Assembly: GCA_016180435.1 (NCBI GenBank)
Contig: JACPBG010000003.1
Span: 13,791-77,790 of the forward strand
Reading direction: 5' to 3'
Source of the DNA: Candidatus Sungiibacteriota bacterium
GTDB taxonomy: Bacteria > Patescibacteriota > Minisyncoccia > Sungbacterales > HO2-52-23
Length of the DNA stretch: 64,000 nucleotides
Every line of letters starts with the position of its first letter. Positions within the stretch are counted from its first letter, which is position 1. This document shows, piece after piece, positions 2 through 2,140 of the stretch. The notes beneath the pieces were generated by a model. It ran no database searches and was not told the DNA's origin. It was given only the letters and a program-made list of their open reading frames with translations. A program made the position numbers and the translations under genes.

Positions 2-2140
2 GAGCTTCATGAAAAAAGCGGCGGCGCGAAAAATCAATATATTTTTATGCGGCATGGCCAGGCCGTGACTAATGTACGCGATATCGTGTCTACCGATCCG
101 GGCGGAAATTATTCCTTGACTCTTCGTGGCAGAACACAGGCAGAAAAAGCCGGAGAAAAACTAAAAAGCAAAAAAATTGACATCATTTTTTCATCCGATA
201 TTTTGCGCGCCAAGGAAACAGCTGAAATTGTAGCGGGCAAACTCGGTATTAAATCCATCCGGCTCGATGAGCGTCTGCGCGAGATTATTGTCGGGGAATT
301 TGAGGGGCGTTCCATCGGCGCGTACCGTGGTTTTTTTGCGGACGCGCGAGCCCGTTTTACAAAGGCTCCGCCAGGCGGCGAAACATTGCATGATGTACGG
401 CGGCGCGCAATTTCTTTTTTGTACGAATTGGAACGAAAATACGAGGGCAAAACCATTCTTATCGTAAGCCACGGCGATACGCTCTGGATGATGGGCAATA
501 CTGCGCGCGGTTTTTCGGAAGAAGAAGTTTGTGCGCTAAATTTAATGCCCGGGGATGAGGCCACACCCTTTGCGGAGCCGTATGAGGTGGCATATAAAAA
601 TCTGCCGCGGGACGAGACCGGAGATATAAATTTACATCGTCCGTATGTAGATTCGTTTCTGCTGATTTGCCCGAAATGCCGCGGCTCTATGCATCGCGTG
701 TCTGAGGTCGCGGACGTGTGGTTTGATTCTGGAGCAATGCCATACGCGAGCGTTCACTATCCGTTCACGCCCGCGCAAATTCCAAATTCCAAACTCCAAA
801 TCATAAACAAATTCCAAACCCCAAACTCCAAATTCAAAATTCCGTTTCCAGCTGATTATATAGCAGAAGCCGTGGATCAGACGCGCGGATGGTTTTATAC
901 GCTGCTTGCGGTAGCGGTGCTTTTGGGCAAAGGAACGCCATATAGGAATGTAATTTCTCTCGGCCATGTTTTGGATAAAAACGGGCAGAAAATGTCTAAG
1001 TCTAAAGGCAATGTGGTAAATCCGTGGGAAATGATTCAAAAATACGGAGCCGATGCCTTGCGCTGGTATTTTTATACTATAAATTCTCCAGGCGAGCCGA
1101 AGCGTTTTGACGAAAAGGACTTATTGCAGAAATTACGCGGATTTTTAATGACGTTTTGGAACAGTTTTGTTTTGTTTGACACATACATTGATAAAATTCC
1201 AAATTCCAAATTCCAAATTCCAAACAAATCCCAAAGAAAAAATCCAAAAATTCAAAACGTTTTGGATCAGTGGATTATTTTGAAACTGGATATGCTTACG
1301 GCATTCATCACGGAGAAGTTGGATCAGTACGATATCACAGCTGCGGCGCGCGCTATAGAGGATTTTACCGTCATTGATTTTTCGCAATGGTTCTTGCGCC
1401 GTTCGCGCCGCCGTTTTCAGCATCCGGAGTCAATGAAAGAAAAAAATGAAGCAGCAACAACCGCGGCCATAGTTTTGGAAACCCTTTGCCGGATTTCTGC
1501 GCCTTTTGTGCCGTTTCTTTCCGAGGCAATATACCAGGAACTCCGTAAAAAGGGAAAATACAAGGAAACGAGCGTGCATCTTACGGAGTGGCCCATAATA
1601 AAATCAAAAATCAAAATTCCCGCCCCCGCTAAGGCTTCGGCGGACAGGCAAAAATCAAAATTACTGAACGACATGGAGATTGTACGGGATGTTGTAGCAG
1701 AGGCATTGAAATTACGGGCGCAAGCGGGAATTAAGGTAAGACAACCATTACAAGAACTTAGAATCAAGAACTTAGAACTTAGAAATCAGTCGGGACTGCT
1801 TGAATTGATAAAAGACGAGGTGAATGTGAAAAAAATAACTTTCGGAAAAGAACTTAAACTTGATATAAAAATTACGCCGGAATTGAAAGAGGAGGGCTGG
1901 GTGCGTGAATTTATCCGCAATATTCAGGAAATGCGTCGCGATGCCGGGCGAAAACCAGGCCAAAAAATCAGTTGTCAGATTATGGGCTCGCAGAAACTTG
2001 AGCAAATCATGGAGCGCTGGACCAAATTCATTAAAAAAGAAACGAATACGACTGAATTTAAAGTCGGAGGAAAGCGCGTATTCAAAATAGAGCGGGAGGT
2101 TGAATTCGGCGAAGAAAATTTATGGATAGGAATTTCGTAA
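2..2140 (+). CDS. ileS: Isoleucyl-tRNA synthetase, C-terminal two-thirds (5'-truncated at window edge), with an N-proximal histidine-phosphatase (phosphoglycerate-mutase family) domain in the same ORF
   Basis: The frame is open from nt 2 through the annotated M47, so the gene continues upstream. Residues IFMRHGQ...SHGDTLW give the RHG and second-His signature of the histidine phosphatase fold. These are followed by the IleRS hallmarks LHRPYVD, CPKC, VWFDSG and KMSKS ([14 protein letters not shown]) and an anticodon-binding region. Four in-frame repeat insertions are present. Confidence 0.85.
   Translation, partial: [712 protein letters not shown]
781..846. repeat. In-frame CCAAAT/TTCCAAA-type heptad repeat run inside ileS (encodes [22 protein letters not shown])
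   Basis: ttccaaattccaaactccaaatcataaacaaattccaaaccccaaactccaaattcaaaattcc; the reading frame is preserved. Confidence 0.8.
1196..1262. repeat. Second in-frame TTCCAAA repeat run inside ileS ([21 protein letters not shown])
   Basis: ttccaaattccaaattccaaattccaaacaaatcccaaag...; the frame is preserved. Confidence 0.8.
1752..1790. repeat. In-frame GAACTTAGAA-type repeat inside ileS ([13 protein letters not shown])
   Basis: agaacttagaatcaagaacttagaacttagaaatc. The same motif family recurs in tatD (15974-16003), leuS (20856-20890) and mfd (62815-62850). Confidence 0.75.

Follow-up and report, generated by a model that had tools for sequence, protein, structure and literature searches.

What is a histidine phosphatase doing inside the reading frame of an isoleucyl-tRNA synthetase (IleRS)? 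Few enzymes are as conserved as the aminoacyl-tRNA synthetases. Additional domains on them are well known from eukaryotes; in bacteria they are rare and mostly serve tRNA binding or editing. The question is raised by the first 2.1 kb of the window, by which we mean the 64,000-nucleotide stretch of contig JACPBG010000003.1 of a Candidatus Sungiibacteriota bacterium analysed here. It has three parts: whether the phosphatase is inserted into a full-length synthetase or fused to a split one, where in the synthetase it sits, and what it may be for.

The reading frame and the site of insertion

The frame is unbroken from the window edge through 712 codons (2..2140; this and all features below are on the forward strand) to a TAA stop at 2138-2140, and represents the 3´ 2.1 kb of ileS. 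It encodes, in order, a His_Phos_1 domain followed by the KMSKS half, the anticodon domain and the type-2 C-terminus of IleRS, and every motif cited in the original prediction lies where it had been placed. The first two codons, E1 and L2 (2..7), align with the end of the “VIGSxxEL” helix of CP3 in the insert-less orthologues P0069, P0080, P0081 and P0089, that is, with IleRS residues ahead of the insertion point, as expected of a gene that extends upstream beyond the window edge. Next comes the nested segment of 198 residues (aa 3-200; 8..601), represented by 4-10 residues in insert-less orthologues, against which its boundaries are clean in the alignment. The ATG of Met16 (47..49) is an internal codon rather than a start, because the closest homologue, P0001, has Ile at the same position; in the structural model it belongs to beta-strand 1 of the phosphatase, YIFMRHG, as had been suspected.

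Downstream of the nested segment, alignments identify the C-terminal part of CP3 (602..679), running from LPRD to LHRPYVD (632-652) and the second CxxC of the zinc knuckle, CPKC (668-679); the first CxxC is encoded ahead of the window edge. Next, the second Rossmann half (716..1003) extends from VWFDSG (716-733) to KMSKS (aa 330-334, 989-1003), the latter invariant in 104 aligned homologues, and the Pfam tRNA-synt_1 match covers aa 206-358. This part is interrupted by a loop made of about 10 copies of the 7-nt tandem repeat CAAATTC (776..843), coding for a peptide of 22 letters. A second 7-nt-repeat loop (AAATTCC, 4.4 copies; 1194..1257) stands just ahead of the anticodon-binding domain (Anticodon_1, aa 422-584; 1265..1753; E=9e-28), and the protein ends in the type-2 IleRS C-terminal domain (DUF5915, aa 619-711; 1856..2134; E=8e-19).

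All synthetase parts that fall within the window are intact. The presence of the last two domains identifies the synthetase as type 2; type-1 enzymes carry a C-terminal zinc-binding domain. The best NCBIfam matches of the window protein are MupA, ileS and MupB. TIGR00392 is matched over positions 509-852 and scores 289.5 bits against a cut-off of 621.4, the window holding just the C-terminal ~500 synthetase residues. The predicted fold of P0001 has a TM-score of 0.83 to Priestia megaterium IleRS2 (8C8V) and 0.77 to IleRS1. The nearest known systems are the eukaryote-like, mupirocin-resistant type-2 enzymes, P. megaterium IleRS2 (8C8U/8C8V) and Thermus thermophilus IleRS (1ILE; E=6e-228 to the nested IleRS), with which the family shares the Rossmann fold, CP core, CP1 editing domain, CP2, CP3, KMSKS, anticodon domain and type-2 C-terminus. 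Another curated IleRS with an extra enzyme domain is described by NF040702, where that domain is a different one, an N-acetyltransferase (GNAT); identity with it was rejected at 69.3 bits against a cut-off of 1999.

The phosphatase is lodged in CP3, in the long loop of its zinc knuckle; CP2 lies before this subdomain and the second Rossmann half after it (domain limits of CP3 from PMC7191050 and PMC7955072). By alignment, the insertion point corresponds to residues 479/489 of T. thermophilus IleRS, ~493 of the Saccharomyces cerevisiae enzyme and ~500 of that of Candida albicans. The Cys4 zinc knuckle is common to the nested and the T. thermophilus enzymes, and its cysteines (C486, C489, C722 and C725 of P0001) are conserved in the homologue alignment. 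What differs is the distance between the CxxC pairs, ~9 residues (479-489) in T. thermophilus and an enzyme domain of ~198 residues here. Two positional claims of the original prediction must accordingly be corrected: the phosphatase had been placed upstream of the CP2 half and in an editing region of the class I synthetases, and it is found after CP2, inside CP3 and not in the CP1 editing domain. The CP1 domain of IleRS, ValRS and LeuRS nevertheless offers a parallel, being likewise a hydrolase carried with closely spaced termini in a connective-peptide loop of the Rossmann fold. Its substrates are aminoacyl esters and its distribution is universal, in contrast to the nested domain at CP3, which is a predicted phosphomonoesterase, lineage-restricted and dispensable.

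The N-terminal half of the synthetase lies outside the window and had to be sought in homologues. The closest of them, P0001 (74% identical, 1182 aa), is a single open reading frame on its own contig, with ~500 residues of IleRS ahead of the phosphatase. More than 110 proteins likewise read in a single frame from the N-half through the phosphatase into the C-half. This arrangement was found in 80/80 of the species-representative genomes checked, all of them Patescibacteria/Parcubacteria and the best 80 of 328 species representatives with a match; among them are contigs of 0.3-0.9 Mb and the complete genome AP024682.1. In these homologues the N-half is intact, with a TTTPWT editing motif, the first CxxC and a non-canonical GIHH signature in place of HxGH, which may be compared with the G/AXHH subclass of IleRS2 (Brkic et al. 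2023, PMC10485003). P0001 and the family consensus both carry GIHH, WTTTPWT and GTGFVH, whose counterparts in the present copy would lie upstream of the window edge. Among the best 150 representative matches, the long proteins checked were all IleRS. As had been proposed, then, the domain appears to be inserted in a full-length IleRS and not fused to a split gene: at the level of sequence, the nested architecture is confirmed as real and family-wide, and the frame in the window reads as the 3´ two-thirds of the gene for one bifunctional protein.

Family and catalytic residues of the phosphatase

The original prediction had suggested an HMM search for His_Phos_1. The model matches aa 14-176 (41..529) with E=1.5e-38 and 132.9 bits, well above the gathering threshold of 21.7, which places the domain in branch 1 of the histidine phosphatase superfamily (PF00300). 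All residues of the catalytic set are present. The RHG motif within IFMRHGQ (50..58) provides R17, the predicted phospho-acceptor nucleophile H18, and G19. R69 (206..208, in LRAKET) is the second phosphate-binding arginine, E94 (281..283, in REIxxG) the predicted general acid, and H157 (470..472, in the SHGD of SHGDTLW) the second catalytic histidine. R17 and H18 are found in 111/113 homologues (the remaining 2 have gaps), R69 is Arg in 112/113 and H157 is His in all 113; the position of E94 is Glu in 96 and Asp in 17. The catalytic residues are kept in sequences down to ~35% identity, and the phosphatase is probably active.

Structure prediction, also suggested at the outset, modelled the phosphatase and both linkers at high confidence. 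The model has the alpha/beta fold of the superfamily and would be that of a capped small-molecule phosphatase, such enzymes giving the best structural matches (182-184 of 198 residues aligned); the cap-less SixA-type enzymes match less well, over just 135 residues. The nearest phosphatases are the stand-alone branch-1 enzymes PhoE of Geobacillus stearothermophilus (1H2E/1EBB), the phosphoserine phosphatase PspA (4IJ5) and the glucosyl-3-phosphoglycerate phosphatase GpgP (6S2Q), at 22-29% identity. Unlike these, the present domain is either nested in a tRNA synthetase or coupled to one genetically.

More specific assignments were tried. The domain reached no NCBIfam equivalog cut-off. Phosphoglycerate mutase (dPGM) was rejected (NF038349, 97.3 against 225; TIGR01258, 42.5 against 81.7; other dPGM models far below cut-off), as were alpha-ribazole phosphatase CobC (TIGR03162, 80.4 against 162.9) and SixA, for which the TIGR00249 cut-off was not reached and the fold is not the minimal, cap-less one. 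An intein or mobile element was discarded too, the segment being a complete His_Phos_1 domain, in frame throughout the clade and free of nuclease or recombinase signals.

Free-standing genes, further loops and other synthetases

New here is the existence in sister lineages of the same phosphatase as a separate gene directly upstream of an insert-less ileS. Eighty metagenome loci were scanned for the free-standing form; 4 end at a contig edge, and in 67 of the 76 evaluable loci ileS starts just downstream of the phosphatase gene. In the three annotated loci (P0169, P0141 and P0271) the spacing is 1-8 nt. The neighbourhood argS-ileS-recO is common to the nested and the separate-gene forms. The IleRS downstream of a separate phosphatase gene lacks a nested copy in 52/52 evaluable loci, and no second copy was found within ±4 kb of the nested loci (80/80), so that across these 52 separate-gene and 80 nested loci the two forms are mutually exclusive. 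A close free-standing relative, P0127, adjoins a ROK sugar kinase and a HAD hydrolase instead of ileS.

In other lineages the phosphatase is nested in two further surface loops of IleRS, making three insertion sites, or it is present in 2-4 tandem copies. RHG or RHA is retained in all tandem copies, as is the second histidine, save in one copy cut short where an incomplete protein ends. The repeat loops of the window are themselves sites of this kind: in other lineages the equivalent of 776..843 is occupied by a phosphatase or by a kinase-like domain, and that of 1194..1257 carries a second phosphatase in P0184, P0224 and P0255. The kinase-like (P-loop) domain lies inside one insertion-tolerant loop of P0237; its matches (APS, shikimate, Pnkp1 and guanylate kinase) are marginal, with E 0.02-0.3, far below cut-offs.

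At least three sublineages have lost the domain, and no replacement phosphatase was found within 10 kb in the insert-less sublineages; it is therefore dispensable for aminoacylation. In the IleRS tree, split-gene and nested forms make up separate blocks, with insert-less forms inside the nested block (the trees are quick neighbour-joining trees that carry no support values). The mean identity to the window is 42% for the insert and 58% for the synthetase, the insert evolving faster.

The original prediction had further supposed a lineage-specific habit of grafting hydrolases into the editing regions of synthetases. The habit is real, because the LeuRS of the same window holds nested esterase and NUDIX domains; LeuRS homologues from the same lineages have both of these, NUDIX alone, esterase alone or neither. 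It is the placement in editing regions that did not hold. The GlyRS of the same genome has ~90 nested residues. Combinations of related domains are known from other proteins. A branch-1 histidine phosphatase is joined to a P-loop kinase in 6-phosphofructo-2-kinase/fructose-2,6-bisphosphatase, which recalls P0237, and mycobacterial MutT1 unites a Nudix and an RHG domain, the Nudix domain being found here in the LeuRS of the same genome. In both, unlike in the nested arrangement, the domains are joined end to end and the pairing follows a defined small-molecule logic. MutT1 was rejected as a functional precedent because its RHG domain has no settled activity (PMC11784022).

A probable linked function and its alternatives

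We consider it fairly probable that the protein is a bifunctional type-2 IleRS/small-molecule phosphatase in which a ~198-residue branch-1 domain (PhoE/PspA/GpgP-like, capped) in CP3 has a function linked to that of the synthetase. The phosphatase would attack a small phosphomonoester or a terminal phosphate in the standard two steps, by way of a phospho-histidine, and it would be co-expressed 1:1 with the synthetase or physically tethered to it because the two functions are linked. Nucleotides of the aminoacylation cycle (AMP, other nucleotide by-products and possibly PPi) may be guessed to be the most plausible substrates. As to its origin, the domain would derive from an upstream operon partner that entered the CP3 loop a single time, in the ancestor of a large clade of Parcubacteria, with at least three later losses. 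Counting against a link are the losses, together with the faster divergence of the insert, and the fact that adjacency of the donor gene and insertion-tolerant loops could give repeated nesting without coupling.

The latter point leads to the alternative that survives best, although we find it rather unlikely. A housekeeping phosphatase (for a sugar phosphate, phosphoglycerate or nucleotide) that happened to lie next to ileS may have been dropped into permissive loops by local duplication and deletion, the activities being unrelated and nesting just saving a promoter in a streamlined genome. This would agree with the adjacency to ileS in sister lineages, the tolerance of the receiving loops (repeat peptides in the window, the kinase-like domain in P0237), the losses, the nesting of other domains in LeuRS and GlyRS, and the location of P0127 away from ileS. 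It accounts less well for the retention of adjacency in 67/76 split-gene loci, at spacings of 1-8 nt in the three annotated ones, for the strict exclusivity of the two forms, for three independent insertion loops and tandem copies with intact catalytic motifs, and for the restriction of the checked long proteins to IleRS. Such repeated and specific pairing with one synthetase exceeds the usual effect of operon neighbourhood.

A target of larger size appears decidedly improbable. The phosphatase could act on tRNA(Ile), for example by clearing a 5´ end group, or a 3´-phosphate or pyrophosphate with which a nuclease or toxin has blocked charging. Its target could also be a phosphorylated protein, either IleRS or a phospho-His/Ser partner. 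In favour of such targets, the enzyme that carries the domain binds tRNA, and the domain is placed ~30 residues past the CP2-CP3 linker, which lines the pocket for the tRNA CCA end (PMC7955072). Its superfamily includes protein phosphatases (SixA, PGAM5 and Sts), seen as weaker structural matches, and the kinase-like domain added next to it in one lineage, with its marginal match to Pnkp1 (E=0.054), brings to mind end-healing kinase/phosphatases. Against this, the structural matches over 182-184 residues are to small-molecule enzymes and those to the SixA type extend over 135; Pnkp1 is no better a match for the kinase-like domain than APS, shikimate and guanylate kinases are; the insert, with a pI of 8.9, is not unusually basic, the rest of IleRS having 9.2; and none of the searches run returned a nucleic-acid-directed member of the branch.

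Finally, a misassembly, a frameshift fusion or a catalytically dead spacer could be suspected in a gene whose N-half lies outside the window and in data that are mostly metagenome-assembled genomes, but this is scarcely credible, being already refuted at the family level by the conserved catalytic residues and the identical architecture of 80/80 independent species representatives, one complete genome included, and further opposed by the confident modelling of the domain and its linkers.

In conclusion, a complete and apparently active phosphomonoesterase is predicted within the catalytic body of IleRS in hundreds of species belonging to a major bacterial radiation. Full-text literature searches and the papers checked yielded no account of an IleRS with a phosphatase, and a survey of domain architectures in 96,219 IleRS sequences mentions neither a phosphatase nor Patescibacteria/CPR (bioRxiv 10.64898/2026.02.03.703510). 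The nested domain may account for the bare label “class I tRNA ligase family protein” given by annotation pipelines, and metabolic reconstructions may count the synthetase-embedded domain as a “phosphoglycerate mutase”, which calls for caution. The loops identified as tolerating whole-domain insertions are useful in engineering. The translationally coupled upstream gene and its nested counterpart form a clean natural “Rosetta stone” and, with the independent insertions in three loops, make for a strong and testable prediction that the phosphatase is linked to isoleucine charging.

Parcubacteria have tiny genomes. One wider possibility, which we regard as doubtful, is that their class Ia synthetases serve as scaffolds for nested small-molecule enzymes that process by-products or error products of aminoacylation on site. 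IleRS would contribute a histidine phosphatase (1-4 copies, sometimes with a P-loop kinase) and LeuRS a NUDIX hydrolase and an esterase, and the products handled would be AMP, PPi, Ap4A and non-cognate aminoacyl-adenylates or esters. If so, these synthetases would be the centre of a recycling and proofreading unit in organisms unable to make nucleotides or amino acids, and the phosphatase linked to IleRS would carry out one defined step in it.

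A nested phosphatase in ileS and its position

The 3´ part of ileS occupies window positions 2-2140 (+), and its frame is open from base 2 for 712 codons to a TAA stop at 2138-2140. Within this frame, Pfam detects His_Phos_1 at residues 14-176 (E=1.5e-38, with a score of 132.9 bits where 21.7 is the cut-off), followed by tRNA-synt_1 (206-358), Anticodon_1 (422-584), and DUF5915 (619-711). The synthetase part matches the NCBIfam ileS, MupA, and MupB models from profile position ~509 on, which makes it the second half of an IleRS of type 2. The open frame of the original prediction is thus real, and the motifs on which it was based are all in the places given there: RHG (nt 50-58) and SHGD (467-478) in the phosphatase, then LHRPYVD (632-652), CPKC (668-679), VWFDSG (716-733), and KMSKS (989-1003). 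The ATG at 47 encodes Met16, which lies in the first β-strand of the phosphatase (YIFMRHG) as had been proposed, and since the nearest homologue has Ile at this position, it is not a start codon.

The proposal that the gene continues upstream agrees with what is seen in related IleRSs. A protein search recovered over 110 proteins, 1140-1235 aa long, that combine tRNA-synt_1, His_Phos_1, Anticodon_1, and DUF5915; their names assign them to Sungbacteria, Jorgensenbacteria, Nealsonbacteria, and Parcubacteria. The closest homologue, P0001 (1182 aa), is 74% identical across the entire window fragment and is one ORF on its own contig, where, as in the window, recO follows; in its sequence around the junction (42 residues, not shown), the window begins at a stretch of 19 residues (not shown). 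When one genome per species was scanned with the insert alone, 328 species were hit, the best 80 of which were all Patescibacteria, and at each of these 80 loci the N-terminal half, the phosphatase, and the C-terminal half were in one open frame. A split IleRS fused to a phosphatase is ruled out for the family by the in-frame N-terminal half of P0001 and of these 80 loci, and is very unlikely for the window copy itself.

Close insert-less orthologues of about 1000 aa (P0069, P0080, P0081, and P0089) have the junction VIGSxxEL-(4-10 aa)-LP(R/K)D..(D/N)LHRPYVD, and in the window EL and LPRD bound an insert of 198 residues (aa 3-200, nt 8-601). On solved structures, the insertion gap falls between residues 479 and 489 of T. 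thermophilus IleRS, near 493 of the yeast enzyme, and near 500 of the C. albicans enzyme. CP3 connects CP2 to the second Rossmann-fold half and has a zinc motif in T. thermophilus; its published limits are 473-534 in C. albicans (PMC7191050) and 459-526 in S. cerevisiae (PMC7955072). Because the structure-aligned positions fall inside these limits, the insertion is in CP3 and not, as originally predicted, in the editing region, which is CP1. Four cysteines (CxxC...CxxC) conserved in the family flank the insert on either side, so that the nested domain is clamped at its base by the zinc knuckle. The nested-phosphatase clade also has GIHH (G/AxHH) in place of HxGH (upstream of the window; residues 54-58 of P0001 and the consensus of the homologue alignment A1), a variant that in IleRS2 has been associated with hyper-resistance to mupirocin (PMC10485003).

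Split-gene, nested, and multi-copy states

Besides IleRS-embedded copies, an exhaustive search of representatives with the insert as query returned some 45 free-standing proteins, ~190 aa long and 40-46% identical to it. Three of the four that were looked up are encoded upstream of an ileS that lacks the insert, at a distance of 1-8 nt and in the order argS-[phosphatase]-ileS-recO, the same neighbourhood as that of the window; the fourth is located elsewhere, away from ileS. Among 80 metagenome loci from a scan seeded with free-standing copies, ileS starts directly downstream in 67, four end at a contig edge, and nine are non-adjacent. The downstream IleRS has 14-35 residues at the CP3 junction and no nested copy at all judgeable loci (52/52). 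The signature of IleRSs downstream of a free-standing phosphatase is mixed (31 GxHH/23 HxGH). Of the 80 nested loci, none has a second phosphatase copy within 4 kb. Some syntenic loci contain an ileS that has neither the insert nor a phosphatase within 10 kb. In quick neighbour-joining trees without support values, IleRSs of the split-gene and nested states form separate blocks, and insert-less, phosphatase-less IleRSs are placed inside the nested block at at least three points. Together, the blocks and these placements suggest one main gene move into CP3 with losses afterwards.

Some IleRSs contain two or four phosphatase domains, and all copies keep the second His and an RHG or RHA motif, except for one copy truncated by the end of a partial protein; one multi-copy cluster is present on contigs as large as 1.06 Mb. 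Mapped onto an insert-less IleRS reference, the insertions occupy three sites: CP3, the loop after WFDSG (homologues P0224, P0255, and P0232), and the loop directly before the anticodon-binding domain (P0184, P0224, and P0255). P0237, an IleRS2 of 1395 aa with canonical HYGH and a phosphatase in CP3, has a P-loop kinase-like domain at residues 735-905 in the loop after WFESG (Pfam AAA_18, E=1.7e-6), with marginal matches only, to APS, shikimate, and guanylate kinase and Pnkp1.

Repeats and other synthetases of the window

Coding sequences of the window carry tandem 7-nt repeats of an AAATTCC family on the coding strand, translating to IPNSKFQ-type loops. These are found in ileS (776-843, 1194-1257, 1600-1616, and 1751-1784), in the ORF at 2843-4585 (4102-4126, 4202-4234, and 4412-4452), and in leuS (18013-18063, 18297-18328, 18949-18979, 20168-20219, 20587-20655, and 20856-20882). 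Two copies with at most two mismatches occur 33 times vs 3.3 expected. Relatives have other 7-nt-derived peptides in the same two IleRS loops (KSQKSKVKSQ in P0001), and it is these two loops that receive whole domains in other lineages. The pattern resembles the spread of a short repeat, specific to this genome, into surface loops of essential genes that tolerate insertions.

Four synthetase genes lie within 21 kb (2-21121): ileS, glyS (7665-9338), metG (13416-14972), and leuS. The order ileS-recO-DUF11 protein-glyS-M16 peptidase-AI-2E transporter-...-metG is kept in related contigs, where argS is upstream of ileS. Between ileS and recO the window has an additional 2.6 kb (2157-4800 (+)) that the syntenic loci L002, L084, and L085 lack. 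It contains an ORF of 84 aa, which matches DUF4258 weakly and below cut-off (E=6e-4), and a 580-aa ORF with 7-nt repeats and no family match. GlyRS (7665-9338 (+)) is of the dimeric type (NF003211, 588 bits), and ~100 aa longer than syntenic orthologues (451-452 aa), the extra length being a ~90-aa helical segment inserted between two CxxC motifs.

LeuRS (17498-21121 (+), 1207 aa) has an alpha/beta-hydrolase (Ser_hydrolase, aa 283-437) ahead of the editing domain, which is followed by a NUDIX domain (aa 627-721); among Parcubacteria homologues of the same lineages, some have both domains, some one of the two (NUDIX or esterase), and some neither. The suggestion that this lineage habitually nests hydrolases in class I synthetases is upheld by LeuRS, but the insertions are not confined to editing regions. 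Free-standing NUDIX genes in the same neighbourhoods (related loci L085 7588-8013, L083 3031-3480, L084 5104-5598, and L089 879-1376) adjoin glyS, whose end is overlapped in L085, or follow the PolX gene. With such free-standing neighbours, the LeuRS NUDIX domain might, like the phosphatase, lend itself to a split-versus-nested comparison.

Possible role of the phosphatase

In 111-113 of 113 insert-bearing homologues, R17, H18, R69, and H157 are invariant and residue 94 is E or D; mean identity to the window is 42% for the insert vs 58% for the synthetase half. Structure prediction gave a confident nested domain: the full-length AF2 model of P0001 (pLDDT 89.4, pTM 0.84) has values of 94-97 for the insert and both linkers, its synthetase part matches P. 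megaterium IleRS2 with a TM of 0.83, and the window insert modelled by itself has a pLDDT of 93.4. The insert reached none of the curated equivalog cut-offs for dPGM, CobC, PspA, GpmB, and SixA, and is therefore a distinct subfamily of phosphatase (non-mutase) type. Judging from the fold, its substrate is most likely a small molecule.

Both enzymes, the synthetase and the phosphatase, are complete and are present in one chain or in one operon. The synthetase part would charge tRNA(Ile) in the normal way, for which natural orthologues without the insert show it to be unnecessary. The phosphatase would hydrolyse a small phosphomonoester or terminal phosphate via a phospho-His18 intermediate, with the phosphate held by R17, R69, and H157 and with E94 as the acid. 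From the repeated, site-independent nesting in one synthetase and the conserved operon adjacency, we infer a functional link with IleRS. The main rival is hitch-hiking, in which permissive loops would simply have taken up an unrelated housekeeping phosphatase from the gene next door. A role as a tRNA-end or protein phosphatase is less likely, as the capped fold speaks against it. Within a functional link, the favoured candidate is a substrate tied to the aminoacylation cycle (AMP, other nucleotide by-products, or possibly PPi), because the association of the phosphatase is specific to IleRS.

Full-text searches that covered the AARS Online paper and a 2026 survey of 96,219 IleRS architectures (bioRxiv 10.64898/2026.02.03.703510) turned up no mention of a phosphatase in IleRS, although the sequences were deposited years ago; some of them bear no annotation beyond 'class I tRNA ligase family protein'. 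Synthetases with an accessory domain are already known as a kind; in the present case, the pattern of split, nested, and multi-site states is unusually informative.
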